Assembly: GCA_050950765.1 (NCBI GenBank)
Contig: JBMNIF010000002.1
Location: 11,738-75,737 of the forward strand
DNA: 64,000 bases
Reading direction: 5' to 3'
From: Bdellovibrionota bacterium
Lineage (GTDB): Bacteria > Bdellovibrionota_C > UBA2361 > JAAYZI01
Within the stretch, counting starts at the first letter, position 1; the number at the start of each line of letters is the position of its first letter. Below are positions 4,865-63,069 of the stretch, piece after piece. The notes under the pieces are model-generated. The model did no database searches. It was not told the DNA's origin and saw only the letters and a list, made by a program, of their open reading frames with translations. The position numbers and the translations under genes were made by a program.

Positions 4865-5198
4865 TCCTCCCTAGATCAACATTGTGATCCATCCCACACA
4901 CGAGATAGAAAGTCGTTCAATCCAAGGGATCGCATTACGATCTGCCGCTAAATTCTTTTAGGAAAAATTATTTTTTTTGCTATTGGAGTAATAATGTTCA
5001 AAATTGTACAAAAATGGGCGTTTTTTAAATGAGAAATCACTCTTTATAAGAAAAGAGTCTACTATGGCTTCAATTTTTACGAGTTACTAAAAGGGCAATT
5101 CCTCGCTTCTCCCCCACTCTTTTATTCATCTTTGTATTGCAGTGAGGTACTTTTTAATCTCTGCACTCTATTTTTTGTGTTGTTATAAGTGTTGATAT

Positions 5199-5678
5199 TT
5201 AACGTTCCAGTAATGTCAACTCCAAAACACCGCTACTGATGAAACGAGCTAAATTCTTGGCGTTTCTTTCTGCTGCTTCAAGAGTTGCGCTAGGATGATT
5301 TCGATAGCAATCAACAGAATAGGTTGAATCCCCATTTGGCGAGATCCTTCTCCTGACTTCATAGATATACTTTGAATTACTTCCTCTGTTACTGATTAAC
5401 TTAGCGGTATTGATACTTAATTGTGCGTCAGGGATATATTGTCGAAAAAACAACCCTGCTCTCTGCCAAGCGGCAAAATCTTTTTCTAGGGAAAGTTGAA
5501 ATGTAGTTGGCGTCTGGTCAATCTCTGCCAAAGTCTGTTCTTTTTGCGAGATTACTTCCATTTGTAGGTCATTAGCAGAATTGGCGCTACAAGAAGAGAG
5601 TCCTAAAACGGTTAAGATAAGAACAAACTTAATATTTTTTATGTTTATCATAATCGAATCCTTAAATCCGCAGCACAA
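5199..5678 (-). CDS. Hypothetical lipoprotein.
   Basis: Signal peptide with a lipobox-like LGLSSC. No recognisable domain. Confidence 0.45.
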   Translation of the reverse strand: MCCGFKDSIMINIKNIKFVLILTVLGLSSCSANSANDLQMEVISQKEQTLAEIDQTPTTFQLSLEKDFAAWQRAGLFFRQYIPDAQLSINTAKLISNRGSNSKYIYEVRRRISPNGDSTYSVDCYRNHPSATLEAAERNAKNLARFISSGVLELTLLER

Positions 5679-5833
5679 GGTTTCTTTCCGCCTTCAATAC
5701 ACCAATACCTTTAAACAGGAAAGGGGGACAATAAGAACGGTGTTTGCTCCTTACATTCTTACTACGTAGTTTTATAGCTAATGCCGCTACAAGAAAAGGC
5801 CGATATTAAAGAGTAGACAGTGCAGTTTGTTAG

Positions 5834-6706
5834 TTGTTTCTATTTTTTATCGGCGTTCTCATGATAATTCGACTACTTTTTATAGTATTATCATTTTATA
5901 TCTTCGCATTTTCGGAAGTCTCAGCTGATGATACTGTCAGGGCACGTTTTACCCCTAATGCTACACGTTACAAACACACCTTAACAGTTGCTCCGTTAAA
6001 ACTTGCTAATGGAAGTAGTTTAACACTTGTCTCTCCTGCTCATTTAACAGGTCTAACCAAAAAGCTCTCTATCTTGCTTGAGCGGACACATCAGCAGTAT
6101 ACGAAAATTTTTGGAGAGATCCCGACGCTGACCACTTCAATTCGACTAATTGATGAAAGAGAATTCTTTAAAGTAACAGCGGCACCTGAATGGACAAATG
6201 CACTTTTCTATAAAAATGAGATCATTATTCCCATCCCTGAAAATGTTGCTGAGATAGACCTTGAAAATATTTCCCGCGCGATAAAGCATGAATATACTCA
6301 CGCTGTGGTGCACGCCTTATCTGCCGGACGGTGCCCTGGTTGGCTCGATGAGGGGCTGGCGCAATGGTCTGAGGGACCTGAAAATCCGGCTTTACAATTA
6401 GCTTTGCTTGAACTCTTAAAAAAGAATCGTTACATCCCTTTTGATAAATTACAGGGAGGTTTTACCAAATTGGATGTCGAATTAGTCCCTGCTGCTTATG
6501 CACAATCTCTTTACGTGACAAAAGAGCTTCTGACTCAACACGGATTTTCAGCTTTAAGACGATTCTTCAAAGTGTTACGTCACGGCTATAGCAAAGACGC
6601 TGCATTTATTGCGGGGTTTAATATGAATGAAGGCTTAATAGAAAACATCGCCATTCGCAGAATCAAAGCACGCTTAAATCAACGTCAAATCTCTGCTGCA
6701 CAGTAA
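5834..6706 (+). CDS. Membrane-anchored zinc metallopeptidase-like protein (Peptidase_MA_2-like).
   Basis: N-terminal TM helix. An HExxH motif (HEYTHAVVH) is followed by the third-ligand motif WLDEGLAQW, which is typical of the MA_2 family. Confidence 0.55.
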   Translation: MFLFFIGVLMIIRLLFIVLSFYIFAFSEVSADDTVRARFTPNATRYKHTLTVAPLKLANGSSLTLVSPAHLTGLTKKLSILLERTHQQYTKIFGEIPTLTTSIRLIDEREFFKVTAAPEWTNALFYKNEIIIPIPENVAEIDLENISRAIKHEYTHAVVHALSAGRCPGWLDEGLAQWSEGPENPALQLALLELLKKNRYIPFDKLQGGFTKLDVELVPAAYAQSLYVTKELLTQHGFSALRRFFKVLRHGYSKDAAFIAGFNMNEGLIENIAIRRIKARLNQRQISAAQ

Positions 6707-6739
6707 ATCAGAGATCATCATCCGGATCTTCCCTAGCTT

Positions 6740-7950
6740 TTTACCCCCATAGAGGATCGTCACTGAAGGGTGGCACCAGATTTTTAACCCCCGTCAAGAT
6801 CTAGCTAGCTCGTTTCGCTGTATCAGCCCGTCCTAGCGTCCCTGAAGGGTGGCACCAGTGATAAAGCCAACTAATCCGCCCAAACTGGTGGGTGGCACCA
6901 AATTCATCACCTGCTTGCTAGAAGCTTTTTGCTTAAAAAGCCTATTAGAATCAAACTATTATGACATAACTAGTTGTTTAGGAGCCTCTAGCTTCAGCTT
7001 TCAATAAAGAAGGGTGGCACCAGTGATAACCCCGCCCTGCTGTCCCTGAAGGGTGGCACCAGATTTTTAACCCCCGTCAAGATCTAGCTAGCTCGTTTCG
7101 CTGTATCAGCCCGTCCTAGCGTCCCTGAAGGGTGGCACCAGTGATAAAGCCAACTAATCCGCCCAAACTGGTGGGTGGCACCAAATTCATCCCAAATTCA
7201 TCACCTGCTTACTGAGAAGCTTTTTGCTTAAAAAGTCTATTAAAATCAAACTATTATGACATAACTAGTTGTTTAGGAGCCTCTAGCTTCAGCCTTCAAT
7301 AAAGAAGGGTGGCACCAGATTTTTAACCCCCGTCAAGATCTAGCTAGCTCGTTTCGCTGTATCAGCCCGTCCTAGCGTCCCTGAAGGGTGGCACCAGTGA
7401 TAAAGCCAACTAATCCGCCCAAACTGGTGGGTGGCACCAAATTCATCACCTGCTTGCTGAGAGCTTTTTGCTTAAAAAGTCTATTAAAATCAAATTATTA
7501 TGACGTAACTAGCTGTTTAAAAACCTCCAACTTCACCAACTTCAGCCTTCAATAAAGAAGGGTGGCACCAGATTTTTACCAGCTTCAGCCTTCAATAAAA
7601 AAGGGTGGCACCAAATTTTCCAAATTTTCAGCCTCTTTTTAGTTGCAGCCCGTTCCCGTCAAGACCCAACCAATTCGCTTTTCAGTTCAGCCCGTTCAGC
7701 CGTCCCTGAAGGGTGGCACCAAATTCATCACCTCCGTCAAGACCCAACCAATTCGCTTTTTAGTTGCAACCCGTCCAGCCGTCCCTGAAGGGTGGCACCA
7801 GTTTTTTAACCCCCGTCCAGATCTAGCTAGCTCGTTTCGCTGTATCAGCCCGCCCAATCGTCCCTGAAGGGTGGCACCAGTTTTTTAACACTAAATTTTA
7901 ACCCCAACTTCAGCCTTCAATAAAAAAGGGTGGCACCAAATTTTCAGCCC
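6740..7950. repeat. Array A of a mosaic short-repeat family: about 16 copies of the core GAAGGGTGGCACCA(A/G)ATT within a roughly 250-290 bp higher-order unit repeated about four times.
   Basis: Seen directly in sequence. The array fills the entire convergent intergenic region between CDS 5834-6706 (+) and ispF (-). Confidence 0.95.
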
Positions 7951-7962
7951 TATCAGATCTCT

Positions 7963-20873: not shown

Positions 20874-20880
20874 AAAACCT

Positions 20881-21060
20881 TTTTCCTCACCAAGCTCTAA
20901 ACAATGCTCTTTACTCGTAAGGATCTTTTTCCTCACCGAGACTCTAATCAACATCCCTTGCTCGCAAGAATCTTTTTCCTCACCAAGCTCTAAACAACAT
21001 CCCTTACCCGCAAAAATTCTTTTCCTCACCAAGCTCTAAACAACACCACCCGAAAAATCT
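20881..21060. repeat. Tandem repeat of about 47 bp x 4 (consensus ...CTTTTTCCTCACCAAGCTCTAAACAACATCCCTT...).
   Basis: Seen directly. Lies in the convergent intergenic region between the lipid kinase gene and etfA. Confidence 0.85.
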
Positions 21061-23454: not shown

Positions 23455-25863
23455 ATGCAAAAGAGGAAACGATTTTCAGGTTCGACACTGAATAAGACAA
23501 AACAACCACTTCGTAAAAAAAAAGGGCGTAAAAAGAAGATCAATAAACGACGCCTTTTTATTTTAGTCTGTGTAGTCTTTTTACTTCTCTCTATCTGCGG
23601 ACTATTTTTATCGTACCTGTACGTAGACAATATGGTCTATCGGCATTTGCAAAATAAGTTACAAAAACAGGAGGGGATGGCTTTTTCAGCGCCGTTTACG
23701 TTACAAAGCGGAATGCGTATCTCTGCGGATGTTCTCACACAAACGTTAAGAACTAGGGGATATATTAACGGCACTGGTTCAGTTATTAATCAGGGAGAGT
23801 TTAAGGTACAAGGAAGTGTCTTTAAGATCTATGCCAGAGGGTTTACTGATGCTGAAAATCTCTATCATTCCCCACAAATTTACACTTATGATACAGCCAC
23901 AACAAAGCTATTAACGATCGATCAGAACGAAGAAGAACTTCTACTTGAACCTATTCCGATCTCATCTCTCGCCTCAGGGGAGCACCGTGCTAGCTCTTAT
24001 CTTGCACTGGAAGAAATCCCAAAAAATGTACAACAAGCTGTTATTACCATAGAGGATGAACGCTTTTTTAACCATTCTGGGATAGATCTGATCGGTATTT
24101 TGCGTGCTGTGTTTGCAAATATTAAAGCCGGTTCTATCGTACAGGGTGGAAGCACACTAACTCAGCAACTAGCAAAGAACACCCTTTTTACACCACGCAA
24201 AACGTTGGGACGCAAAATCCTTGAAGCTTTAGCCGCCATTAGTCTTGAAAAGCGTCTTTCTAAAAATGAGATCTTGGAACGGTATCTGAATGAAGTTTAT
24301 CTCGGGCAAGAAGGCTCGGTAGCGATTCATGGAGTAGCAGAAGCGGCGGAGACGTTTTTTGATAAAAAAATAGCAACTATCAATACCTCAGAAGCTGCTC
24401 TTTTAGCAGGGATTATCAAGGCACCATCATATTATTCTCCAAAGCGACACCTAAAACGTGCTCTTAATAGACGTGAGATTGTTTTAAAAAAGATGATAGA
24501 GAATGGGGCTATCTCCGTAGAAGAGGGAGCTGCTGCGCTTCAGTATATACCGAAAATTAAGGAGGGATATACACACACTCCGTTAGCACCTTATTTTCAT
24601 GTAGCGCTATTAAAAGATCTTGAAGAGAAGATTAATTTAGATGTTACGGCATTAAGTGGTATGCGAATCTACACAGGACTAAGTCCAGAACTGCAAAAGT
24701 GTGCAACAGCTGCTATTGCAGAAGAGTTACCGGCCATAGAAGAACGGTATCCAGCTTTAAAACGTAAGAAATCACCTCTAGCGGCAGCACTCGTTGCCAT
24801 AGAACCACACAGCGGATTGATTAAAGCATGGGTTGGCGGCAGGAATTATGCCACGAATCAATTCGATCACGTCTCTCAAGGTTTTAGGCAGATCGGATCT
24901 ACGGTAAAACCTTTTTTATATCTTACAGCTTTAGACGGCGGTTTAAACACTTATAAAGTTGCCACTGCTGATAGTATTCTGCCTGATAAACCGACAATTT
25001 TTACATTACCGAATAATAAAACTTGGACTCCTCTTAATTATGATAAGAAGTATCACGGTGATGTTACGTTACGTTATGCTTTGGAAAAGTCTTTAAATAT
25101 TCCTGCGGCGTATATTGGCGGTAAGGTCGGTGTTAAAGCTTTAGCGCATACCCTCTCTATTTTTCATATAGCAGAAGATATTCCAGAGGTACCGGCAATC
25201 ACATTAGGTGCTATTGATACCAGCCTATTAAAACTTACCGCTGCCTATGGTGCCTTAGCTAATAGCGGCATCTATGTTACTCCGCGACTTTTTTCAAGTG
25301 TGATAGATCGCACTGCCACTACTATTGCGAAGACCCCTTTTCAAGAGGAACGACTTTCTGATGAAGGTGCAGTCTATGTTTTAACTAATATCTTACAAGG
25401 TGTAGTAGATCGTGGTACTGGAGCTGCTATTAGAAGACTTGGATATAAAAGAGCGGCGGCTGGAAAAACCGGCACTTCAGATAATGCACGAGATGCGTGG
25501 TTTGTTGGGTATACTCCGAACCTTGTTGCGGGTGTCTGGCTTGGTTTTGATGACAATAAGAAGATAGGTGTAACTGGTGGCGGAGTGGCTGCACCGATCT
25601 GGGCTAATTTTATGAAGTGTTCTGAGCCGTTTTTGCAAGATTCTCAATTTATTCCACCTGATAATGTTGTTTTTGTTAGGATCGATTCTCTAACGCACAG
25701 GCGTGCTGATCGTTATACACCGCCGGATCGCGTAATTAGAGAGGTTTATGTTAAAGGAACTGAGCCGCCCGAATATTTTAATGATTCTCAATCGGATGAA
25801 TACGATCTTCCGACTCCACGACGACCTAAACGCAGAAGCTTTTGGGACCTCTTCGACTGGTAG
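23455..25863 (+). CDS. mrcA: Class A penicillin-binding protein 1A (transglycosylase/transpeptidase).
   Basis: The glycosyltransferase motifs EDERFFNHSGID and the transpeptidase motifs SGSTVKP and KTGT. N-terminal TM anchor. Confidence 0.9.
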   Translation: MQKRKRFSGSTLNKTKQPLRKKKGRKKKINKRRLFILVCVVFLLLSICGLFLSYLYVDNMVYRHLQNKLQKQEGMAFSAPFTLQSGMRISADVLTQTLRTRGYINGTGSVINQGEFKVQGSVFKIYARGFTDAENLYHSPQIYTYDTATTKLLTIDQNEEELLLEPIPISSLASGEHRASSYLALEEIPKNVQQAVITIEDERFFNHSGIDLIGILRAVFANIKAGSIVQGGSTLTQQLAKNTLFTPRKTLGRKILEALAAISLEKRLSKNEILERYLNEVYLGQEGSVAIHGVAEAAETFFDKKIATINTSEAALLAGIIKAPSYYSPKRHLKRALNRREIVLKKMIENGAISVEEGAAALQYIPKIKEGYTHTPLAPYFHVALLKDLEEKINLDVTALSGMRIYTGLSPELQKCATAAIAEELPAIEERYPALKRKKSPLAAALVAIEPHSGLIKAWVGGRNYATNQFDHVSQGFRQIGSTVKPFLYLTALDGGLNTYKVATADSILPDKPTIFTLPNNKTWTPLNYDKKYHGDVTLRYALEKSLNIPAAYIGGKVGVKALAHTLSIFHIAEDIPEVPAITLGAIDTSLLKLTAAYGALANSGIYVTPRLFSSVIDRTATTIAKTPFQEERLSDEGAVYVLTNILQGVVDRGTGAAIRRLGYKRAAAGKTGTSDNARDAWFVGYTPNLVAGVWLGFDDNKKIGVTGGGVAAPIWANFMKCSEPFLQDSQFIPPDNVVFVRIDSLTHRRADRYTPPDRVIREVYVKGTEPPEYFNDSQSDEYDLPTPRRPKRRSFWDLFDW

Positions 25864-26075
25864 AGGTTAAAAATTTGGTGCCACCCTTCAGGGACAGCAG
25901 GACGGGCTGATACTACAAAGCGAAGTCAGCTAGATCTTTACGAGGGTTAAAAATTTGGTGCCACCCACTAGGGACAGCAGGACGGGCTGCAATGCAGAGA
26001 GGAAAATTTGGTGCCACCCACCAGTGCTAAAAGACTCTAAAACTACGATAGATAATAATATCAAGATGTTAGCAA
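25864..26075. repeat. Array B of the mosaic repeat family (3 cores, GGTGCCACCC orientation). It is truncated by the IS insertion.
   Basis: Starts immediately after the mrcA stop codon and ends at the IS left target-site duplication. Confidence 0.9.
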
Positions 26076-27903
26076 CCTAAATTCCGCAATTTTTATCTTT
26101 TCTCCATTCCAGAAATAAGCCACCGTATTTTTTATTGATATTTTAGTTAGTTATATATTTTTCTATATTGACATTTCCTGTTTGTATGGTATGATTGCCC
26201 TATACATATTAGGGAGGTTTTTTATGAAAAAAATAACTAAAAAAGTTGACTTACCAGATAGGCAAATTGCTCGTAAGAAAAACAAAAATGGGACTACTTA
26301 TATCTATTACAGGATGAACTTTCGTCGTGAAAACGGAGAGCCTACGTTTGATGAAATAGGTATAGGGAAGCTAGATGAAAGCGGTAAGAAATTAATTCCT
26401 AATAGAAATTACTATGATTTGTTTCCAGATGATTCTAATAGATATGTTATTAGCAATAAATCTTTTGGTCTTACTTATGTTTTAAATAAGATTGTAAAAG
26501 ATTTAAGGTTAGACAAGACATTGCTTTCAATTTTTGGAAATGACACATACGAGATTTTAACTTTAGCGTTTTATATTCTAGCAAATGGAAATGTAGTATC
26601 ACATGCTTCAAGTTGGATAGATGATAGTGTCTTACCATATGAAATTTCTGAATTAACAAGTCAAAAAATAAGTCGTCTTTTTGAACGTATTGACTACGAG
26701 AAAAGACTTAATTTTTTTAAGAAATGGACGAAGCGATATTTAGCTCAAGAATGTTGGTATTATGACGTAACTTCCATATCTTCTTATAGTAAAAAAATAA
26801 GCATATTGGAGTTTGGCTATAATAGGGATATGGATAAATTGCCGCAAATAAATATAGGTATGTGCTACGGCTCTACAACGAAGCTTCCTTTATTCTATCA
26901 AGTTTATAATGGCAGCATTACAGATAAGACATATTTTAGTTTTCTTTTAAGAGACTTTCCATTTATTAGTCTTAATAATCGTATTAACCTTGTTACGGAT
27001 CAAGGTTTTGTGACGCAAGATAATTTAGCGGAAGTAGCAAATGAAGAAGGGCAAAAGTTTGGACTACTTTGTCCTTTGCCACTATATTGGAATGACGCTA
27101 AAAGAATATTAGAAAATCACACTGCACTTATTAAGCAAGATGCTAATTATATAAAAGGAACCTCTACTTTTGGTTGTTCTGTAATAGATACTGTTATGGG
27201 ACAACCTGTAAAGATTTATGTTTATTACAATATGGGAAAGGCGCCATATGAGATAGTTCAATTTTACGAGAAAATTTCTAGAATGGAAGAAGAGTTAGAA
27301 GAACTGAAAAAATTAAAATACTCTTTGCTGGATCGTAAAAAATATAGGAAATATTTTGATATTAAAATAAATGAAGATGGTTTCACTTATGAAAAAAAAT
27401 CAGAAGCTATAGATGAATACTTGAGAAATTGTGGCTTCTTAATTTTGATTGGTATTGGTTGTGATTCAAATCCGAGTGAAGCACTTTTTCGTTATCGTCA
27501 AAAAGATGTAATTGAAAAACAATTTTTCCAGCTAAAAAATGAAATTGATTTTAGAAGACTTAAAACACATAATCTTCAAACCACAGAAGGAAAACTTTTT
27601 GTTGGATTTTTAGCTCTTATACTTAGAAGTTATATTCTTAATTTACTTAAAAATGATACAAGGCAAAAAAAGTTTAATATACCTGATGTCATTAAAGAGC
27701 TTCAAAAAATTAAAGTTATAGAAACTAAAAATGGCAGTAAATTAATGGTTCCGTTAACAAAAAAACAAAAGGATATTTTGAAAATTTTCAATATTGAAGA
27801 AGATGACTTTCTAAAAAGTATTTTTAAGAAAAAGTAAGATTATACCGCTCGAAAGCTACCTTTAAAAACACGTTTGTATGGTATAATTTCGCGGGAATTC
27901 AGG
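26076..27903 (+). mobile_element. Insertion sequence of the IS4 superfamily, about 1.83 kb.
   Basis: Imperfect terminal inverted repeats (CCTAAATTCCGCAATTTTTAT versus CCTGAATTCCCGCGAAATTAT). Flanking 7-8 bp direct repeat (G)TTAGCAA at 26068-26075 and 27903-27910. Joining the two flanks recreates an intact repeat module seen elsewhere at 28160-28240. Confidence 0.8.
26224..27837 (+). CDS. DDE transposase, IS4/IS1634-like.
   Basis: About 540 aa with a DDE-type core (...YYDVTS..., ...LVTDQGF...) and a C-terminal YRQKDVIEKQFFQLK segment. The likely start is MKKIT. Confidence 0.8.
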   Translation: MKKITKKVDLPDRQIARKKNKNGTTYIYYRMNFRRENGEPTFDEIGIGKLDESGKKLIPNRNYYDLFPDDSNRYVISNKSFGLTYVLNKIVKDLRLDKTLLSIFGNDTYEILTLAFYILANGNVVSHASSWIDDSVLPYEISELTSQKISRLFERIDYEKRLNFFKKWTKRYLAQECWYYDVTSISSYSKKISILEFGYNRDMDKLPQINIGMCYGSTTKLPLFYQVYNGSITDKTYFSFLLRDFPFISLNNRINLVTDQGFVTQDNLAEVANEEGQKFGLLCPLPLYWNDAKRILENHTALIKQDANYIKGTSTFGCSVIDTVMGQPVKIYVYYNMGKAPYEIVQFYEKISRMEEELEELKKLKYSLLDRKKYRKYFDIKINEDGFTYEKKSEAIDEYLRNCGFLILIGIGCDSNPSEALFRYRQKDVIEKQFFQLKNEIDFRRLKTHNLQTTEGKLFVGFLALILRSYILNLLKNDTRQKKFNIPDVIKELQKIKVIETKNGSKLMVPLTKKQKDILKIFNIEEDDFLKSIFKKK

Positions 27904-28372
27904 TTAGCAAAAGCTTCGGGCTTGGCGAATTTGGTGCCACCCACCAGTAAGACGGGATCTGGCAGATTTGGCAGGGCTTGGATCTGGTGCCACCCACTAG
28001 AGACAGCAGAGCGGGCGCAACTTGCAGATCAAATCGGTTAGATCTCTACGGAATTTACTACCACTCGCTAGGGACAATTGAGCGGGCTGATACGGCAAAA
28101 TAAATCAGCTAGATCTATACGGAGGAGGTTAAATTTTGGTGCCACCCACCAGTGCTAAAAGACTCTAAAATTACGATAGCTAATAATATCAAGATGTTAG
28201 CAAAAGCTTCGGGCTTGGCGAATTTGGTGCCACCCACTAGGGACAGCAGGACGGGCTGCAATGCAGAGAGGGATCAGCTAGATCTCTACGAGGGTTAAAA
28301 ATTTGGTGCCACCCACTAGAGACAATTGAGCGGGCTGATACGGCAAAATAAATCAGCTAGATCTATACGGAG
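27904..28372. repeat. Array C of the mosaic repeat family (about 6 cores) with an internal duplication of about 250 bp.
   Basis: Runs from the IS right end to 7 bp before the map stop codon. Confidence 0.9.
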
Positions 28373-28378
28373 GAAAAA

Positions 28379-37475: not shown

Positions 37476-38167
37476 ATGTTGATCCTGTCTGTGGCGTTTT
37501 GCCTCGTCGCTTTTGCCGGTGCCGCTTACGGCGTTTTCCTGTTTTGGGGATTCGACATTACCCAACTCTGGTTCTCGGAGTTCTTCTCGGAGTTCTCTTG
37601 GGAAACTTTCAAAGCCAATGTTCAAGGACTGCACCCTTCCGCTTTGGAGACGGTCTACCAATACCGTTCCGAAATGGTTGCACTCGTTGTTATCATGGCT
37701 TTGTTTCTGAAGGCTGTCGGCGCTTTTAGCGCGACTAATACGGACTGCTCTTTTAGGGTTATCGTCCTTAGGGTGTTATCTGCGCTGGCGGAGGGAGGTA
37801 TTTTCGGGATCATTTTAATGCTCTTCGAAAGCCGTTTCCCTGGGGCTATCGCCCGATTGGGGCACCGCCCCTTATCGCCTGCCTTGTTATTGGAGTAGTT
37901 TTACTACTATCCAAGTTCAAAATTAGCTATGCATTGCTAATAATATACCTACTTACAATCGGCTGGGCGATATTTACTAGAAGCTCTGGTCAAACTATTA
38001 CACTGTCGATATGGCCCACGGTATACCTGAGTGCACTTGTACCACTTTGTGCGCTCGGAACTCTTCAAGCGCTCTACAGAGACAAGTCAGACGGCGAACT
38101 CTATGTTATGAGTTGGGTACGTCTGTACGGACTGGCTTCATTAGCGGCTATCGTGCTTCTTGTATGA
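37476..38167 (+). pseudogene. Frameshifted copy (P1) of a novel multi-TM membrane-protein family. It is split into ORFs 37476-37898 and 37934-38167.
   Basis: Shares TQLWF..F.SWETFKA..QGL and EGG.FGIILMLFESRFPGAIA motifs with P2. The alternative frame after GGGG/CCCC at about 37859-37871 continues the P2-like sequence. Confidence 0.55.
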
Positions 38168-38257: not shown

Positions 38258-38349
38258 TCCTTTTCTTCAGATTAACTAAGCACCCCACCCCAAACTAAAA
38301 CCCCTCTCAAAGCCTAATTGATCTACTTTTCAGCATCAGCCAGCCTACT

Positions 38350-38810
38350 TTTTTAACCTCCGTAGAAATCTAGCCGATCCCGTTCTGCTGTTGCAGCCAG
38401 CCCTGCTGTCCCTGAAGGGTGGCACCAAATTTTTGACCTTCGTGAAAACCTAACCGATTCGTTTTGTAGTGACAGCCCGTTCAATCGTCCCTGAAGGGTG
38501 GCACCAAATTCGCCAAATGCTAAGCTTTTGCTAACGTCTTGATATTATTGGCTATCCTAATTTCAGAGTCTTGTAGCACTGGTGGGTGGCACCAAATTTC
38601 CGCTGCTGTCCCTGAAGGGTGGCACCAAATTTTCTGGTGGGTGGCACCAAATTTTCCCTCGTGAAAACCTAACCAACTTGCTTTTTAATATCAGCCCGCT
38701 CAATCGTCCCTAGCGAGTGGTAGTAAATTCCGTAGAAATCTAGCCGATCCCGTTCTGCAGTTGCAGCCACCCCAATCATCCCTAAAGGGTGATGGTAAAT
38801 TTCTTTAACT
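38350..38810. repeat. Array D of the mosaic repeat family (about 5 intact and 2 degenerate cores, GGTGGCACCA orientation).
   Basis: Lies between the duplicated membrane-protein genes P1 and P2. Confidence 0.9.
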
Positions 38811-38927: not shown

Positions 38928-39752
38928 ATGAAAAAGATCTACCTCTCTTCCGAACAAAGGTTCGACTTCGTTAATAACGCCTTTGCATTTTTGGCGTTGT
39001 TTTTCTTTGTCGCCGATGCTGTTCCTTTGATCTGTAGATTCGACACTACACAACTCTGGTTCACGCAGTTCTCTTGGGAAACTTTCAAAGCCGATGCTCA
39101 AGGACTGCAGATCTCCGATTTGGGAATCGCCAAGGGATACAATCCTACAATGGTTGCAAGCGTTATCGTTATGTCTCTGCTTATCGGAGTCATCGCCGTT
39201 TTCAGAGTTAAAACGAACAACCCCCGAGAGGTTTTAAACTTTGAGATGCTCTCCACACTTGTGGAGGGAGGTGCCTTCGGGATCATTTTAATGCTCTTCG
39301 AAAGCCGTTTCCCTGGAGCCATTGCCCAATTTGGGGCACTGTACTTTATCATCGGCGCTGCTCTGCTGCTCTTTATTGTAGCAGCTTTACTAAAGCTCAG
39401 GTTCAAAATTAACTTCGTATTCTTACTACTCATAAGCATAGCCGCGACTTTCTGGGTGATATTGATCAGCTGCGGTGTCCAAACTATTAGGCTGTCAGTG
39501 TTCCCTACACTGTATCTGACTATGCTCATGATGCTTAAGTCGCTTGAAATTATTCAAATGCTTGATAATTGGCAAGTAGTAGAAAACGTACAGGGTTTCG
39601 AGGAGCTAGAGCTCGAGGATAAAATATACGACGAAGAAACAAGACAGGAAGTTCAAAAAACTGAAGAAGAAGCTCACCGCGAACTCAACTATGCAAGCTT
39701 CCTGCGCGTTTACGGTCTAATCTTACTATCGGTTATGACGGTTCTTATATGA
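38928..39752 (+). CDS. Novel multi-TM membrane protein (P2, 274 aa) with an acidic insert. It is a paralog of 37476-38167.
   Basis: Intact ORF. Conserved motifs shared with P1. Four or five predicted TM helices. Confidence 0.6.
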   Translation: MKKIYLSSEQRFDFVNNAFAFLALFFFVADAVPLICRFDTTQLWFTQFSWETFKADAQGLQISDLGIAKGYNPTMVASVIVMSLLIGVIAVFRVKTNNPREVLNFEMLSTLVEGGAFGIILMLFESRFPGAIAQFGALYFIIGAALLLFIVAALLKLRFKINFVFLLLISIAATFWVILISCGVQTIRLSVFPTLYLTMLMMLKSLEIIQMLDNWQVVENVQGFEELELEDKIYDEETRQEVQKTEEEAHRELNYASFLRVYGLILLSVMTVLI

Positions 39753-44847: not shown

Positions 44848-45448
44848 TTATAAAAAAGCTAATGAATTTACCGGTTTTGTATTTTTTTATTTTAATTTTA
44901 CCGAATTATACAACATTTTTGCTTAACTCCCCATAACAACTTAGAATAGTACAGTAACGCTGTTCTCTTGCAGATCTTTTCACGGAGGGATCTGCAAGAC
45001 TGCAAGTGATGCTGTAAGGTTATTCTCACAGGTTAGTCGAAGGTGTTTTTTGAGTGTTAAATTTTCAACAGAAGATTTATCTACTTTGCCCCTATCGGAT
45101 CTATCAAGAACTTAGTAACGGGATATAAAAAAAACCGTTTTGGCACACTGTTTTTGGTTGTTGTTTTTGATTGGTGCGATAGGAGCAAAGTGATATGATA
45201 TGCTGTTGAGTCTTCGGTTACTTGAATATCATTTAATGATATTTTGACTACACTGAAGATCTTGAGGTCTTGGTTGATATTTTTTTTATCAATTTGAGGT
45301 TACTGAGGTTCGTTTTTCGAGCGTTAGTTCTGCATAATCACTTCGCAGTCTCTCCATTTTTTTCTCTCTTTCCTTATTCTTAAACACTTTCAAAATTCTT
45401 TCGATTTTTTATCCTTCAATTATTTTTTCTAATTATTTTTTCTCGAGT

Positions 45449-46000
45449 TTTTATAGATCCCCACTATGTGCATCTTATAAGAAGAAAAAGTGCGGCTTCT
45501 ATGGGAGATATTACCTCTTAACATACGTAAGGGGAAAAGTTTGGGATAGAATCCAAACTTTTTTGCTTATGAGACAGGTCTTCTCTGATGTTATCCAGAT
45601 CGTCACGACGCAACTCTTCTTATAGAACCCTAACTTTTCTACCGTTTTGATATACGTATTTAGGTATGTAAAGAAAAGAGTTGCGTCTTATTAACGGGAG
45701 ATATTACCTCTTTTTTATAGATCCCCACTATATGCATATTATAAGAAGAAAAGGTGCGGCTTCTGCCGTAGACGCAACTCTTCTTATAGAACCCTAACTT
45801 TTCTACCGTTTTGATATACGTATTTAAGTATGTAAAGAAAAGAGTTGCGTCTTATTAACGGGAGATATTACCTCTTTTTTATAGATCTCCACTATGTGCA
45901 TATTATAAGAAGAAACGGTGCGGCTTCTATGGGAGATATTACCTCTTAACATACGTAAGGGGAAAAGTTTGGGATAGAATCCAAACTTTTCTGTAATTTA
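45449..46000. repeat. Nested repeat field downstream of tRNA-Val: modules X (x3), Y (x2, about 105 bp with 12-bp terminal inverted repeats GACGCAACTCTT) and Z (x2, ending in a perfect hairpin AAAAGTTTGG-n8-CCAAACTTTT).
   Basis: Seen directly in sequence. The roughly 1.1-kb stretch contains no credible ORF. Confidence 0.8.
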
Positions 46001-46038
46001 CGTATCTCTACGTAGAAACCGTTTAGAAACAAGCCAAG

Positions 46039-46740
46039 TTAATTTTCGATGATTACTTCAACACGTCTGTTTCTGGCACGTCCCTCGTCTGTACGATTCG
46101 TAGCAATAGGTCTTGATTCCCCAAAGCCTACGGAACGAATACGAGTGTCAGAGACACTATTCCTTACCAATTCGCTAGCAACTGCAGTAGCACGTCTCTC
46201 TGAAAGAATTTGATTATAAGCGATGCTACCAACAGAATCAGCGTGCCCTTCAACCGAGATAGTCCGATTCGGATAATCATTAACAACACGCGCTATCTCA
46301 CTTACAGCACGTACAGCATCAGGTCTGAGATCTGCTCGATTAAATTCAAAAAGAACATCAGGCAAGTTCACCACCACCCCTCGTTGAGTTGTTCTAACAT
46401 CAGCGCCACGCCGCCTAAGTTCATTAATCATGCGACGGTTTTCTTCAAGCATCTGATCGCGCGCTGAGATTCTAGCATCCATCTCTGCTAATTCCCGATT
46501 TTGTCGGTCGTATTGACTCCCAACAAGAGCACCACCTAAAGCACCACTAGCAGCTCCAATGGCAACACCTGCACCGGTATGCCCTGTTTCATGACCGATA
46601 ATAGCCCCCAAACCGGCACCAAGCGCACCACCGGTAAGAGCGCCACCTTCAGTAGCCCCCATCTGTCCATTTTCACAAGCCATAAGAGAAAAACAGAATA
46701 AAAACACAACTAACTTCTTCATCAGAGGCACCTCATTCAA
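46039..46740 (-). CDS. OmpA-family lipoprotein with an N-terminal glycine-zipper and coiled-coil module.
   Basis: Lipobox SLMAC, a GxxxG zipper, a coiled coil and an OmpA C-terminal domain (...NRRVEV...). Confidence 0.8.
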   Translation of the reverse strand: MNEVPLMKKLVVFLFCFSLMACENGQMGATEGGALTGGALGAGLGAIIGHETGHTGAGVAIGAASGALGGALVGSQYDRQNRELAEMDARISARDQMLEENRRMINELRRRGADVRTTQRGVVVNLPDVLFEFNRADLRPDAVRAVSEIARVVNDYPNRTISVEGHADSVGSIAYNQILSERRATAVASELVRNSVSDTRIRSVGFGESRPIATNRTDEGRARNRRVEVIIEN

Positions 46741-49125: not shown

Positions 49126-50484
49126 TTATTGTTCCTCTTGAGATTTACGGAACTTTTCAGCAGCGAGTTGATCTATGGAGATAGCAACTACCTTACCATC
49201 AACACTCCCTGCCACTATCTCCGCTTCTTTCGTAAAAGTCAGCACCCTCAAGTTAGTCGCCTTTATCTCGTATTCAAGAGCGAGCTCATACTCCACCAAT
49301 CGCCCCTCTTTCTCCCTTTTTCGCCAAACTTTCAACATACCATCACGGGCAATAGTTGCAACTCTATCCCCTTCCGGACTAATGGCGATGTCGTATATCA
49401 TCCCGTCATGTGCTTGAATATCGACAACTTTTGATAATCCCCGCACCTGCCAGACCTCAACACTTCCATCTTGCGCGCTAAGCACCAAAAATTGCCCGTT
49501 TTGACTGATTTTTATACGATCAATTCTCTCTCCCGCATTACGCGCCGCACTCTTTAAAGCGGGAACATTTGCAAAAAAACGCGTTCCGAAAAGGTTTTCA
49601 TCATATTCGCCTTTATAGGCATCTGAACCATACACCAACCACGCCTTTAAATTCCCCACCCAATCACCGCTAAAAAAGAGCCTGCCGTACGGATGAAAAG
49701 CCACCGCACTCACAACACTGGGATGCCCGTGATAACGATCTAGCCCTGCCGTTCCTACCCGTCCCCCTCTTAGGGGTTCTTGCGGATTAAACGCCCAACG
49801 ATAAACCTTACTATCCGTCGCACCGATTATGATTGATCGTGCTTCCGGATCAAAAGCCATAGAAACTGCGTTAGCTGCTAACTTAGAAAGCTCAAAAGGC
49901 CCTTTAGATCCCGCCATTATCGGTAAAATTATAATTCTCGACCCTTTAGATATTCCGATATAGGCACCATTTGTAGAAAAGACTGCGACACCAGGTTTTT
50001 CCGGTAAGAAAAACATCCTCCTTCTCATTTTTCTACGCAGATCCCAAACCGAGACCTCCCCCTCTGAATCAAGGGATAAAACGAAGCTTCGTCCACTACA
50101 ATCTCTAACTACCTGTAATGCTTTAATATACCCTCTTGCGGCGCTAGTTGTGTATGTGCCGTCCTGCCATCCGTTGTAACAATTTTCCGATATATTCTGT
50201 TTTTCTCTCTCGGCAAACGGTTTATTACTGCTTTGTGCATCTTTTCTTGCGACTAGCGGTTGACGGATCGTTGAATCCTCCATAAACTCAGCACCGACTT
50301 CGATCCTATCACCACTCGGTTGAACACGGTTTCTAACCGTTTGAGGGCTCTCTGAGAAGATATCAAGCGGTTGAAGATTAGCGCAAGCACTTAAACAAGC
50401 GCTGCTGAAAACCGAGATAACCGTGATAACGATTAGATGTTTATAATTTAAGAGTTTATGATTCATAGAGTCTCTGCCTAGCAC
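49126..50484 (-). CDS. WD40/beta-propeller repeat lipoprotein.
   Basis: Signal peptide with LSAC. Repeated ...DG.V.VW... and GH...V..VAFHP blades. Confidence 0.65.
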   Translation of the reverse strand: MLGRDSMNHKLLNYKHLIVITVISVFSSACLSACANLQPLDIFSESPQTVRNRVQPSGDRIEVGAEFMEDSTIRQPLVARKDAQSSNKPFAEREKQNISENCYNGWQDGTYTTSAARGYIKALQVVRDCSGRSFVLSLDSEGEVSVWDLRRKMRRRMFFLPEKPGVAVFSTNGAYIGISKGSRIIILPIMAGSKGPFELSKLAANAVSMAFDPEARSIIIGATDSKVYRWAFNPQEPLRGGRVGTAGLDRYHGHPSVVSAVAFHPYGRLFFSGDWVGNLKAWLVYGSDAYKGEYDENLFGTRFFANVPALKSAARNAGERIDRIKISQNGQFLVLSAQDGSVEVWQVRGLSKVVDIQAHDGMIYDIAISPEGDRVATIARDGMLKVWRKREKEGRLVEYELALEYEIKATNLRVLTFTKEAEIVAGSVDGKVVAISIDQLAAEKFRKSQEEQ

Positions 50485-57200: not shown

Positions 57201-59953
57201 ATGAGAACGTTCTATATCTACGCCGGACGAAATACAGGGAATCCCGTTGCTAACATGATTATCACAACGGAATGTCAATTGTGGCCCTGGGAATATTTTC
57301 GAGAGATGCTGGACAAGATGGCAGGAGGATTTTCAGGGATCCGTTTTTTCCGGCTCTTTTTTTACCCCGCAAAGGGGTTTGCTATATCGCTCTAACAACA
57401 GACGATGCCTCAGCAGATCTTTTAGTCCAATCCTTTTATTCAGCCTTAGAGTTTACCTTCCCAGGTGTGGAGATACATGAAGGTCCAGATTTTATAGATG
57501 AGATAACTCCTGATATGGAGCTAGCTTCTACGGAGTTGTATTTCAAGCGTAGCTTTATCTATCCAACTACGACCGGTAAGACATTAAAGGTCAACCCTCT
57601 CGCCCCACTAGCTAACACCATGATAAACTTTCCTCCTGAAGATAGAGTCATCGTGCAAACTATCATAACCCCTCTTAAGGATGACGCCTTTTTACAATTC
57701 TACATTGCAAGAAGTAGAGCGATCGATCGTTTTACGCATAAATTTGAAGCTAAATACTGGTTTAAAAGAGATGCTGTGCCATACATTCATGAAAAAATAG
57801 AAGAAAAGTGCAAATCCAGAATTTACCAAGTAACTATTCGCTTAGCTGCTTTTAAAGAGTGTGAACAAACTCCTGCTGCAAAGAAGGAGATGCGTGAATT
57901 GTTGAAAAAACGGCTTCATTCAATGATCGGCGCATACGCTATTTTAAATGATTCAGACCTTAATACGTACCTCCCGACACCTGTTGTCTACGGTGAACGT
58001 GCTTTAAAACCGTTAAAAAACCGCACCTTCGGACGTAAGGTCTTACTCTCTCCGATTGAACTTGCAGCCGCTTGGCACCCCACAGGGGACTTCTCCAATA
58101 TGCCAAAGGTATTATCAAGACACTACGCTCCACCGCCAGATATGCCGCAGGAAGAAGGAGATCCGAATGTCTGTTTTTTTGCTCGCACTAATTACAGAGA
58201 AACAAAAGTTCCTTTCGGATTTAGTCGTCCCGATCGTAGAAAACACCTTTATGTACTCGGCAAATCTGGAACTGGAAAATCCTGTATGTTGCAACTACTC
58301 ATTAAGAACGACATGGAGAATGGGCACGGTGTAGGCGTAATAGATCCGCATGGAGATCTGATAAGTAATCTTTTAAAACTTGTTCCAAAAAACAGGGTTG
58401 ATGATGTTATTATTTTGGATCCCTCAGACAGAGATTTTCCCGCTAGCTTTAATCCGTTAGCTTGGGTACCGGAGCCTCTAAGAACGCCTGTCACATTAGG
58501 AATCGTCGCTATTTTTAGGAAGTTATTAGGTGAGAGGTGGAACGAACATATAGACTATTTAGTACGTGTTACCGTCTTGGCTTTACTCAGTACTCATGAT
58601 GCTACTTTACTCTCAATCCCGAAGATCCTGACAGATGAAAAGTACAGGGCAACAGTAGCGAGTGCCGTAAGCGATGACGGCATCAGAAAATTCTGGCTAT
58701 ACGCTTTTGATTCATGGTCAGAGGATCATCAAGCCGATGCCATAATTCCACTTATAGACGTTTTACGCCACTTCTTATCATCAGACATGATCAGAAATAT
58801 CGTCGGGCAACCTGTAAATCGCTTTGATTTCAGGTCTATTATGGATGATAAAAAGATCCTACTTGTTAAAGTTTCAAAAGGGCTGCTCGGAGATGAAAAT
58901 GCTACCCTCTTCGGCGCTCTCGTTGTTAGCAAGATCTATCAAGCTGCTATGTCAAGAGCTGACATTCCGCAGGAAGAAAGGAAAGATTTTTATTTTTACA
59001 TCGATGAATTCCAAACTTTTGCAGCTGAAAACGTTAAAGATATGTTGGCAGAATCACGCAAATATCACCTTAACTTAACTTTGGCACATCAATTTTTACA
59101 GCAGCTGCCGAGCGATGTTAGCAACACCATCTTCGGTAATGTCGGGAATGTTGTTACATTTTGCGTCAGTGGAGATGATGCCGATGTTGTTACAAAAGAG
59201 TTATTAAACGAGTTTGACCTTGTGTCATTAACAAATCTGCCGCTCCGAGAGTTCTATGTAAAGATGTTGGTTAATGATAAATCCACTAAGCCTTTTTCAG
59301 GAACAACTTTAACGGTTGAATATCCGGAGGATAGCTGCGCTGATGAGTGTGTTACCGCCTCCAGAAGTCAATATGCCGTACCTCTAAAACAGGCTGAAGA
59401 CATGATACTTCGTTGGGAAAAAGGGGATAATTTTATTGTTAGACCTGAGGTATTTGGAGAGCCTACTCTCGATCTACGTCAACATCTGAGGTATTACGGA
59501 ACTGTCTTACAACTTTCAGATCTAAATATTACTGATGAACACTTATTGCAATTAAGCCACACTGCTTTTGATAATGTTAAAAAATTGGTGCTGACTAATA
59601 CACGCATTACAGATAAGGGATTAACCTCGATAGCTAATTTACGAAACCTTACTCAACTCTTCCTTGACGGTACTGATATTACTGACAGCGGCTTAAAAGC
59701 GATCACAGTTTTGCCACGACTACGCATTCTAAATCTTAGTAGGACAGCAGTTTCAGCGCTAGGACTTGCGCCCTTACGAAGTTCCAAGATTAGAAAACTA
59801 ATTCTACGAGAAACTAAGGTAACCGATAACGGATTAAACTACCTGACTGAATTTAAACGGCTATCAGAAGTGGCGTTAGAAAGAACTGCTATTTCTGATA
59901 AGGCGCTCGATCAACTCTGTTCGAACTTACCAAATGTTAATATTCACGCCTAA
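57201..59953 (+). CDS. Large protein, copy 1: unknown N-terminal domain (about 320 aa), a HerA/TraD/VirD4-like P-loop ATPase and C-terminal leucine-rich repeats. There is an N-terminal frameshift at about 57345-57365, and the intact 893-aa ORF starts at 57272.
   Basis: Walker A YVLGKSGTGKS, then VIDPHGDL. Walker B ...FYFYIDEF... followed by ESRKYHLNLTLAHQF, which fits the TraG-D_C/HerA pattern. About 6 LRRs of the type L..L.L..T.ITD.GL. The conserved start MRTFYIYAGR lies in another frame than the long ORF. Confidence 0.7.
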
Positions 59954-62976: not shown

Positions 62977-63069
62977 GGGGCAGATCCATTTAGGTTTTTT
63001 AAGTTAGACAATAAAAAACGTAACCTGTTACAGGGTGTATAACCACAAAATACATCCTGTACTCTTTAC

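Follow-up and report, generated by a model that had tools for sequence, protein, structure and literature searches.

Among the 'replicators' that persist for long periods in bacterial genomes and are inherited vertically, the REP-RAYT systems are the foremost example, and all of their well-studied cases involve hairpin-forming REPs of Proteobacteria. Very short repeats are also present in cyanobacteria, whose small dispersed repeats were reportedly described by Elhai and colleagues in 2008 as nested mini-elements; we know of no transposase to which they have been shown to be linked. The REP/BIME systems of E. coli and other Proteobacteria consist of short, high-copy and strictly extragenic repeats, arranged with recurring linkers in mosaic clusters, mostly at the 3' ends of genes, and of a repeat-flanked Y1/HUH gene encoding TnpA_REP (PMC3333891, PMC3479197, PMC8266576). 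In the REPIN-RAYT systems of Pseudomonas and Neisseria, non-autonomous repeats are likewise tied to a single- or low-copy Y1 transposase (PMC3116915, PMC5581495). Subclass 2.3 of the TnpAY1 proteins, described mainly from Chromatiales and Alteromonadales, has a median length of 325 aa and a median HUH-to-Y distance of 110 aa, and is described as having no flanking REP-like sequence (Quentin et al. 2018, PMC6006769). The IS200/IS605 elements (IS608, ISDra2), which move by 'peel and paste', insert in a fixed orientation at a short specific target of 4-5 nt, lack terminal inverted repeats, and possess subterminal hairpins at either end together with a transposase gene of their own.

Here we have analysed a 64-kb window, i.e., the whole stretch of 64,000 nucleotides under study, from a member of the Bdellovibrionota, in which a short core, TGGTGCCACCC, separates recurring modules in intergenic arrays. 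Our results make it fairly probable that these arrays consist of non-autonomous, REP/BIME-like repeats belonging to a RAYT-type Y1 transposase that resembles TnpAY1 subclass 2.3.

Core and module arrays in the window

The core TGGTGCCACCC is present in 40 perfect copies in the 64-kb window, where 0.01 would be expected from shuffled sequence, and GGTGCCACCC also has 40 exact occurrences there (0.01 expected). When up to two mismatches are allowed, the 15-mer AATTTGGTGCCACCC has 34 matches in the window against 0.05 expected. The invariant stretch comprises 11 nt (T-GGTGCCACCC), and no copy of the core with one mismatch is present anywhere in the window. All 40 perfect cores are intergenic and none lies within a gene, so that the repeat is short, high-copy and strictly extragenic, as are REP/BIME elements. 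Breaks of short-read contigs inside the arrays are compatible with the hundreds of copies that had been predicted for the genome as a whole. The original prediction of more than 40 copies in five arrays has to be adjusted with respect to the number of locations: the 40 perfect cores are at four sites, arrays B and C being the two parts of one array into which an IS4-like element has inserted.

In other respects, the window cores depart from classical REPs. The complement of the core, GGGTGGCACCA, reveals a near-palindrome in which 8 of the 11 positions are self-complementary, whereas REPs are imperfect palindromes of 20-40 nt that fold into a stem-loop. Only 12 of the 40 cores, those of the ACC type, are capable of forming a hairpin (TGGTG-CCACC-CACCA), which by itself is weak; its folding energy of -3.8 kcal/mol is not above that of shuffled sequences, and an 8-bp stem extended into the flanks reaches -8.2 kcal/mol. 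The TTC- and ACT-type cores do not fold. The 5' flanks are A(A/T)TT or CAC and the 3' flanks ACCAG, TTCAG, ACTAG or TTCTT, and the GTAG or CGTC tag of REPs is absent from the core flanks in the window. Successive repeats alternate in orientation in BIMEs and REPINs; in contrast, core orientation is uniform inside each window array, and the window contains no inverted, REPIN-like core pairs. The hairpins quoted in the original prediction do exist, and one of them, CACCCAC-N8-GTGGGTG, corresponds to the main core paired with a second core, GGGTGTCC.

Array A (6729-7955, minus strand) contains 16 co-oriented cores (6768-7938), the number anticipated, which read GGGTGGCACCA on the plus strand and are separated by modules of classes I, III and IV. 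It occupies the gap between the stop codons, at 6706 and 7963, of two convergent genes, a Peptidase_MA_2 gene and ispF, respectively. A higher-order block composed of modules IV, III and I is present on the minus strand between positions 6765 and 7535 in three copies (6765-6996, 7048-7279 and 7304-7535), and this three-fold block is a local tandem duplication. The spacings of 283 and 256 bp agree with the predicted unit of 250-290 bp, but the unit is present three times and not about four times. Two independent JGI assemblies contain array A in identical form; hence, it is not an assembly artefact, which, together with the presence of the family on other contigs, disposes of the proposal that the arrays might reflect an artefact of local duplication.

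Array B (25864-26075, plus strand) has three cores (25876-26019). Directly 3' of the PBP1A stop codon (25861-25863) it opens with AGGTTAAAAATT and then a core. Its final module, of class II, is cut by the IS4-like element (26076-27902), which is flanked by an 8-bp target duplication, GTTAGCAA. The class II module resumes at the duplicated GTTAGCAA in array C (27903-28374, plus strand), which contains five cores (27932-28314) and ends about 5 nt short of the stop codon of a methionine aminopeptidase gene (28379). Since it lies inside a class II module and has its own 8-bp target duplication, the IS4-like element is younger than the array. Its insertion has been tolerated, as expected of dispensable DNA.

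Array D (38343-38805, minus strand) combines five perfect cores (38417-38649) with two decayed class I units that have degenerate cores (38655-38805). Array E (63063-63865, plus strand) holds 11 cores (63080-63717) and modules of classes I, II, III, V and VI, and it ends about 6 nt short of the stop codon of a convergent minus-strand gene. The sister core GGGTGTCC is present on the plus strand in module E1 of this array (63169-63176) and again in module E5 (63386-63393); in array E it stands at a module junction otherwise taken by the main core. Thus, A and D are on the minus strand and B, C and E on the plus strand, in line with the two orientations originally reported. The further claim that four of the five arrays fill convergent gaps between genes holds for A, for B and C together, and for E, with edges located 0-25 nt from stop codons; however, the left edge of array E is an exception, being about 85 nt past the stop, and array D, unlike the others, is located between tandem paralogous membrane-protein genes.

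The recurring linker modules noted earlier are indeed present: the cores separate about six recurring types, which are 22-174 nt long and themselves repeated. The 5' and 3' flanks of the cores combine freely across the arrays (six module classes), and II-I-I is the terminal order of modules in arrays C, D and E. The class I module bodies have a mean pairwise identity of 74% (range 61-100%); constraint is seen in the core, not in the modules. The same modules are found at four separate loci of the window and on one further contig, and therefore dispersal must have taken place at some time. Each unit lies between direct core copies and lacks terminal inverted repeats, and the only target duplication in the arrays is that of the IS4-like element. 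The small dispersed repeats of cyanobacteria are similarly very short and nested in, or recombined with, other modules, although sequence and taxon differ.

That the core belongs to no known family, as had been proposed, is in agreement with our database searches: BLAST searches of plasmids and phages with array A gave no match, a search of the literature with the core sequence brought up only primers and genes unrelated to it, and an Rfam E-value search with array A found nothing. Several other identities were considered and rejected. The arrays are not of the CRISPR type: the 'spacers' are repeated modules of uneven length, and the window has no cas genes. A sigma-54 promoter was suggested by TGGCAC in the complement, but inspection found no TTGC at the right spacing. 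Likenesses to Chi, dif, parS, oriT and tRNA 3' ends were dropped for lack of a real match.

The core in other taxa and the adjoining transposase genes

Unlike classical REPs, which are species-specific, the same core recurs across phyla: Planctomycetota, Bdellovibrionota, Myxococcota and others contain it in arrays that are intergenic and, for the most part, co-oriented. Such arrays were found just past the ends of long open reading frames in Pirellulaceae and other Planctomycetota, Sorangium, Bdellovibrionota and a 'proteobacterium' MAG with a GC content of 40%, and across phyla the cores often share an AATT 5' flank and an ACC 3' flank. Among the matches listed, the cores are co-oriented in 28 of 32 clusters from other taxa. 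It should be noted that the scan of genome contigs, which gave at least 85 loci, required two cores on the same strand per locus and so favours co-oriented arrays; about half of the 85 listed loci proved on inspection to be Gly/Thr-rich coding repeats of high-GC taxa and were discarded. A scan of metagenome contigs with an extended core yielded 23 solitary matches, coding- or chance-like, and no arrays. Relatives with 78-81% identity in citrate synthase differ greatly in GC content (0.59 and 0.34) and do not contain the core.

The original prediction likened the arrays to REP/BIME elements and advised a search for a REP-associated tyrosine transposase, and this analogy has been borne out: in Planctomycetota, the core flanks RAYT-type Y1 genes. 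Five Planctomycete loci contain a gene for an HUH/Y1 protein of about 350-390 aa with NH[LM]H, WE and YVDLNP motifs. A core in reverse orientation is located 70-101 nt upstream of the start codon in all five, and forward-oriented cores are located downstream of the gene in four; no cores are present elsewhere in these loci. The core beside the transposase gene is exact in the four Pirellulaceae-type loci, and a variant, GGGTGGCCC, takes its place in Lignipirellula. The layout in these loci is REPtron-like. Motifs of the type GGGTG(G/T)C(A)CC adjoin the gene in eight of the nine loci examined, counting the degenerate copies that are the only ones at the locus of a Deltaproteobacteria MAG (L120); the ninth, L135, has no flank of the core type. 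Core-flanked homologues are present in Planctomycetota, Bdellovibrionota and Acidobacteriota.

The window itself does not contain a Y1 transposase gene. A homologue, P0470, is encoded on contigs that share their source samples (JGI 3300060804, SRR31066035) and GC content (0.40) with the window, show a tetranucleotide correlation with it of 0.82, and carry a TGGTGCCACCC array in which the window's class I and II modules recur. The source is very probably the same organism. The expectation of a cognate protein elsewhere in the genome has thus been answered in part, as the P0470 gene is flanked by inverted copies not of the main core but of the sister core GGGTGTCC, and no gene flanked by exact TGGTGCCACCC was found in the window's lineage among the contigs examined. 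In the 21-kb locus L116, GGGTGTCC occurs 38 times and forms inverted, hairpin-forming pairs like REPINs, whereas the TGGTGCCACCC arrays of the window are direct and tandem and lack inverted doublets. The low-GC homologue P0394 belongs to a different organism and has no core-like flank.

Motifs and predicted structure identify the core-associated protein as a Y1 transposase. In P0470, the motifs are NHLH (residues 70-73), WE (163-164) and YVDLNP (184-189). The best match of its AlphaFold model (pLDDT 92) in a fold search of the PDB is 4ER8_A (E 7e-4, target TM 0.64), the E. coli TnpA_REP bound to REP, followed by the TnpA proteins of ISDra2 and IS608, which have the same catalytic fold. It should be noted that 4ER8 was found by the fold search only, and not by single-protein or profile sequence searches of the PDB. 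The NCBIfam model REP_Tyr_transpos is matched with E-values of 1e-8 to 5e-10, the match of P0470 (5e-10) being below the family cut-off; 10 of the 13 members are recognised by Pfam Y1_Tnp, close to its cut-off; and the source annotations include 'REP element-mobilizing transposase RayT'. The proteins are twice as long as TnpA_REP, with inserted and C-terminal domains. The homologues of P0470 have an HUH-to-Y distance of about 113 aa, a length of 330-390 aa, an insertion between the core elements, a specific C-terminal domain and a TS tail motif. In these motifs, spacing, length and domains they resemble TnpAY1 subclass 2.3, although the REP-like flanks in eight of the nine loci are contrary to the lack of such sequences published for this subclass. 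The core is therefore a candidate DNA partner for a 'repeat-less' transposase subclass.

Origin of the arrays

If the arrays were propagated by such a transposase, TGGTGCCACCC would be the element that the RAYT-type enzyme recognises, and the modules between the cores would be passenger DNA. The enzyme may cut single-stranded DNA at or beside the core and join a unit of core plus module next to an existing core, so that each insertion would add one co-oriented unit and regenerate a perfect core. Repetition of this process would yield mosaics of units with a common orientation and with left and right flanks in any combination, and unequal recombination or slippage between cores could then duplicate blocks such as the 256-283 bp unit of array A. 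Arrays would build up where insertions are harmless, between gene ends, without any need for a benefit to the host. Candidate substrates of the Y1 enzyme, on either strand, are AATTTGGTGCCACCCACCAG, AATTTGGTGCCACCCTTCAG and AAAGTGGGTGTCCTAATT. The short specific insertion site, fixed orientation and lack of terminal inverted repeats of IS200/IS605 elements offer a template for co-oriented growth; however, the units described here, of 22-170 nt, do not have consistent hairpins, the 'target' would be 11 nt, and the linker modules (20-120 nt) are long in comparison with those of REP/BIME systems. A wider reading, which we put forward tentatively and regard as somewhat doubtful, is that subclass-2.3-like enzymes have a cognate, phylum-spanning and essentially non-hairpin core, GGGTG(G/T)C(A)CC, and build cassette-like mosaic arrays of co-oriented units by repeated site-specific single-strand insertion at this core. 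If true, repeats in Planctomycetota, Bdellovibrionota, Myxococcota and others would be propagated in a way that differs both from REPIN doublets and from IS200/IS605 elements.

Alternatively, the arrays may be fossils that no longer transpose and that change only by slippage, unequal crossing-over and gene conversion, the latter keeping the cores identical. The three-fold block in array A, the decayed units at the edge of array D and the failure to find a cognate gene for the exact core in the window's lineage would all fit. We nevertheless consider this unlikely, as conversion restricted to 11 nt beside modules that diverge by 26% is hard to sustain, and the modules shared by four loci and another contig would still require past dispersal.

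It is also improbable that a host protein (nucleoid-associated, gyrase/IHF-like or of the partition type) binds the cores, with arrays that are kept for chromosome organisation and a link with the transposase that is historical or absent. A near-palindromic core that remains perfectly conserved while its surroundings drift is what such sites would look like, closely spaced arrays of sites are typical of protein loading platforms, and E. coli BIMEs are known to bind IHF and gyrase (PMC3479197). On this explanation one would not expect cores to lie, in several phyla, at a fixed distance on both sides of a transposase gene, nor arrays to vary in length, tolerate an IS and be confined to a few dispensable gaps, and no candidate binding protein has been identified.

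The original prediction also considered roles at the RNA level, and three of the four sites are convergent gaps in which the arrays abut stop codons, a location that would suit bidirectional terminators, insulators, stabilisers of mRNA 3' ends or sRNA genes. E. coli REPs can stabilise upstream mRNA. Terminator-like sites, however, are no commoner than in shuffled sequence (three against 1.6 expected in array A, none against 1.5 in array E), and terminator activity is therefore unsupported. A structured sRNA is equally unsupported because the alignment of class I modules has no compensatory pairs and no covariation. In addition, a search with Rfam gathering thresholds of the window and 18 related loci found only two tRNAs, outside the arrays, so that a known Rfam structured RNA was rejected, and the cores have no consistent orientation with respect to the upstream gene, those of A and D reading GGGTGGCACCA and those of B and E TGGTGCCACCC. 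Taken together, a role of this kind is very unlikely.

Finally, the IS4-like element between arrays B and C might suggest that the repeats are MITEs of this DDE-type IS, if not an assembly or duplication artefact, but this can practically be dismissed, along with the earlier comparison with Correia-type elements, given that the ends of the IS (CCTAAATTCCGC... and ...GCGGGAATTCAG) bear no resemblance to the core, that it arrived after the array had formed, and that the arrays have co-oriented cores without terminal inverted repeats, in addition to the agreement between the assemblies and the presence of the family on other contigs.

Should the core be the substrate of the RAYT-type enzyme, as we favour, a large subclass of Y1 transposases, of which public data contain more than 9000 representative clusters, would gain a testable partner. 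It would also explain the abundant, assembly-breaking intergenic arrays of Planctomycetes and some Bdellovibrionota, and it would reveal a new architecture of Y1-mediated propagation, namely direct modular arrays with an 11-nt core. Short-read contigs break within the arrays; the core can thus mark likely assembly breaks, and the composition of the arrays could serve as a strain marker.

A perfectly conserved core between recurring modules

The sequence at 6740-7950 agrees with the original description of a mosaic short-repeat family built on a short core, and every copy of that core is confined to the five stretches named there, here delimited as arrays A (6729-7955), B (25864-26075), C (27903-28374), D (38343-38805) and E (63063-63865), which together occupy ~3.1 kb, or roughly 5% of the window. 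GGTGCCACCC is present in 40 copies versus 0.01 expected by chance, and a 15-mer form of the core, allowing at most two mismatches, in 34 copies versus 0.05 expected. Across the 64 kb, copies of the core with a single mismatch number none, against 40 perfect ones. Alignment of all copies in the window gives an invariant 11-mer, T-GGTGCCACCC, which is mostly preceded by A(A/T)TT or CAC and is followed by ACCAG, TTCAG, ACTAG or TTCTT. The core is a near-palindrome, because only three of its 11 positions differ from its own reverse complement, and its direction is uniform inside each array, being on the minus strand in A and D and on the plus strand in B, C and E.

When the arrays are cut at the cores, the resulting units (22-174 nt) can be grouped into recurring classes. 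Class I units (79-80 nt) begin with (TTC/ACT)AGGGAC and end in CTACGGAGGTTAAAAATT, those of class II (88 nt) run from ACCAGTGCTAAAAG to GGCGAATT, classes III and IV measure 43 nt and 122-134 nt, respectively, class V includes GCCGCTTTGGCGGC, and class VI starts with ACCAGTTAAAGTGGGTGTCCTAATTGG; shortened forms, with a minimum of 22 nt, are also present. Flanks to the left and right of the core occur in free combination among the units of the window, and the core is therefore the joining point of the modules. The module order II-I-I forms the shared terminus of arrays C, D and E. In array A, the proposed higher-order tandem repeat exists as a IV+III+I block, in three copies (spacings of 283 and 256 bp) and not in about four.

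Genomic setting of the arrays

The placement of arrays in convergent gaps holds for array A, located between a Peptidase_MA_2 gene and ispF, for arrays B and C, which have a class A PBP gene on one side and one for a methionine aminopeptidase on the other (gene domains by Pfam), and for array E, which separates a gene for a T4SS-coupling-protein/LRR fusion from a minus-strand gene that leaves the window end. The array edges are close to stop codons, as had been described, at distances of 0-25 nt; only E has its left edge farther off, at ~85 nt. Array D separates tandemly arranged paralogous membrane-protein genes, at 37476-38167 and 38928-39752; the former is broken into two ORFs (37476-37898 and 37934-38167). 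Adjacent paralogous ORFs at 57272-59953 and 60688-62976 encode T4SS coupling-protein-like ATPases (T4SS-DNA_transf / TrwB) fused to leucine-rich repeats, and a WD40 protein is encoded at 49126-50484.

The count of five separate arrays has to be revised, as B and C are one array interrupted by an IS4-like element (26076-27902, 1827 bp). This element contains a plus-strand ORF (26182-27837; DDE_Tnp_1, E 1.4e-5), has a GC content of about 0.31 versus 0.40 for the window, and lies within a class II module, with the 8-bp target duplication GTTAGCAA at 26068-26075 and 27903-27910. Two contigs carrying the PBP gene cross array B and then terminate within the element; since short-read contigs break inside it, it is probably multicopy.

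The closest named relatives by citrate synthase are Bdellovibrionota/Bdellovibrionales MAGs (68-69% identity). Two loci from elsewhere, L088 and L114, encode citrate synthases 78-81% identical to that of the window, with the adjacent GreA gene conserved in L088; their GC contents of 0.59 and 0.34, versus 0.40 for the window, are an unusually wide spread for close relatives, and no core was seen in the DNA covered by these two loci.

The core in other phyla and its association with a Y1 transposase gene

A scan for pairs of cores 48-78 nt apart, with each species represented by one genome, yielded at least 85 loci; about half of these are coding repeats rich in Gly/Thr, from high-GC taxa, and were set aside. 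In the remaining loci, core arrays lie just past the ends of long ORFs, the core being unchanged and the flanks lineage-specific: (C)AATT(T)GGTGCCACCCACC in many Pirellulaceae and other Planctomycetota, AGATGGTGCCACCCATCT in Sorangium and TGGTGCCACCCTGTTTT in a 40%-GC "proteobacterium" MAG. The core is also present in Pseudobacteriovorax and a Bdellovibrionota MAG (loci L066 and L069), and in a Prochlorococcaceae MAG (L059). Strict co-orientation was found in 28 of the 32 clusters with at least three cores among the matches listed, a proportion that the search pattern favours. The Planctomycete form of the core is a small hairpin, TTGGTG-CCACC-CACCAA. In L005 (CALMIO010000007.1), from the 40%-GC "proteobacterium" MAG, a distant relative, a PBP1A homologue (4891-7545; 43% amino acid identity to the window's protein) has directly 3' of it an array in which the 11-mer core is unchanged and the flanks differ (TGGTGCCACCCTGTTTT); the site after the PBP1A gene is colonised in both genomes.

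Clustering the ORFs of core-bearing loci revealed one recurring protein adjoining the cores, which contains HUH (SNH[LM]H), FWEGRF and MYVDLNPVRA motifs. Its match to NCBIfam REP_Tyr_transpos is below the family cut-off, with E values of 1e-8 to 5e-10, and that to Pfam Y1_Tnp is weak; it has >7900 homologues, with the source annotations "Transposase IS200-like" or "REP element-mobilizing transposase RayT", and 9355 representative clusters at E ≤ 1e-3. A reverse-oriented core is located 70-101 nt upstream of the transposase start codon in all five Planctomycete loci (Stieleria maiorica, Rhodopirellula SM50, a Pirellulaceae MAG, Crateriforma and Lignipirellula, the last with the variant core GGGTGGCCC), forward-oriented cores lie downstream of the gene in four of them, and there are no cores elsewhere in these loci. 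This placement is like the "REPtron" layout of genes for REP-associated tyrosine transposases (RAYTs). In its motifs, 113-aa HUH-to-Y spacing, length and TS tail motif, the protein resembles TnpAY1 subclass 2.3, for which no REP was found by automatic or manual search (Quentin et al. 2018, PMC6006769); the core is a candidate repeat partner for a subclass published as REP-less.

The suggested search for a RAYT elsewhere in the genome was answered in part. With a profile of low-GC family members we retrieved P0470, annotated as "transposase [Bdellovibrionota bacterium]" and encoded in L116, a 21-kb locus with a GC content of 0.40. The P0470 contigs come from JGI 3300062814 and from two further datasets, JGI 3300060804 and Logan SRR31066035, in both of which the window's ispF contig is also present. 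The tetranucleotide correlation between L116 and the window is 0.82, compared with 0.94 between the window halves and 0.25-0.61 for unrelated loci, and L116 bears a TGGTGCCACCC array whose class I and II modules share 70-88% identity with those of the window. Thus, several lines, namely shared samples, GC content, tetranucleotide usage and shared modules, point to P0470 belonging to the window's organism.

The P0470 gene is flanked by a sister core, AAAGT-GGGTGTCC-T(A/T)(A/T)TT, and not by the core of the TGGTGCCACCC array; a transposase gene flanked by the exact main core was not found in the window's lineage. At the same class I junction, L116 has the sister core instead of the main one, and inverted sister-core pairs in this locus fold strongly (-17.7 kcal/mol, z = -6.7). 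The sister core occurs 38 times in L116, in both orientations, versus only twice in the 64 kb of the window, within array E (63169 and 63386), and the two families are therefore very unevenly distributed. Most intergenic gaps at 600-17800 of L116 hold the sister repeat AAAGTGGGTGTCCT(A/T)(A/T)TT, often as inverted, hairpin-forming pairs. Homologues from Acidobacteria and Deltaproteobacteria MAGs have GGGTGTC(C)-type motifs adjoining the gene, in degenerate copies in a Deltaproteobacteria MAG locus (L120); no such motif is present beside the gene of one low-GC homologue, in L135. The AlphaFold model of P0470 (pLDDT 92.4) has the Y1 fold, its best PDB match being 4ER8, a REP-bound structure of the E. 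coli REP-associated tyrosine transposase, followed by ISDra2 and IS608 TnpA structures.

Interpretation of the arrays and other repeats

The best-supported view sees the arrays as a REP/BIME-like family of repeats belonging to a RAYT-type Y1 transposase clade, with GGGTG(G/T)C(A)CC as the predicted recognition element. The REP/BIME-RAYT analogy drawn originally is upheld by the fixed position of the core beside the Y1 gene in other phyla and by P0470, the homologue from what is probably the window's own lineage, whose gene is flanked by a sister core. On this view, the enzyme would bind and cut single-stranded DNA at the core and, by analogy with the target- and orientation-specific insertion of IS200/IS605 elements, may add "core + module" units beside existing cores, after which recombination could duplicate blocks. 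The arrays would work like REP/BIME sequences with their RAYT, but lack the classical features of a 20-40 nt hairpin, a GTAG/CGTC tag and alternating orientation.

Alternatively, but less probably, the arrays may be a binding platform for a host protein, or fossil repeats maintained by recombination. Class I bodies have a mean identity of only 74% between copies while the core is 100% identical, and hence the core is either selected or continually renewed. Action at the RNA level fares less well: the 12 aligned class I units are without compensatory changes, contrary to a structured sRNA, and terminator-like sites are no commoner than in shuffled sequence, contrary to the terminator role that had been envisaged. 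An artefact can be dismissed, given that array A is identical base for base in two independent JGI assemblies and that the family extends beyond the window, with core arrays in L116 and in other phyla. Several samples have JGI or Logan contigs that bear the window's genes, and six short-read contigs terminate within array A.

As for known elements, an Rfam search returned two tRNAs only, both beyond the arrays, and plasmid and phage collections gave no match to array A, nor did the literature by sequence to the core, in keeping with the initial impression that no known repeat family is involved. The units have no terminal inverted repeats and are thus not MITE-like or, as had been suggested, Correia-like. 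A CRISPR array was ruled out because the "spacers" are themselves repeated.

The REP/BIME-like family is not the only repeat in the window. A 402-bp tandem unit at 1515-2327 (2.0 copies, 98% identity) overlaps the 3' end of an unannotated ORF (820-1818), and a 46-bp tandem repeat unrelated to the core family (20879-21045; 3.6 copies, 84% identity) occupies the whole gap between two converging genes, one DAGK-like and one for ETF alpha. Finally, a 1.2-kb region without any ORF of at least 100 aa (44850-46040), 3' of tRNA-Val, contains at 45607-45928 two copies of a 164-bp unit (97% identity) plus more partial copies.
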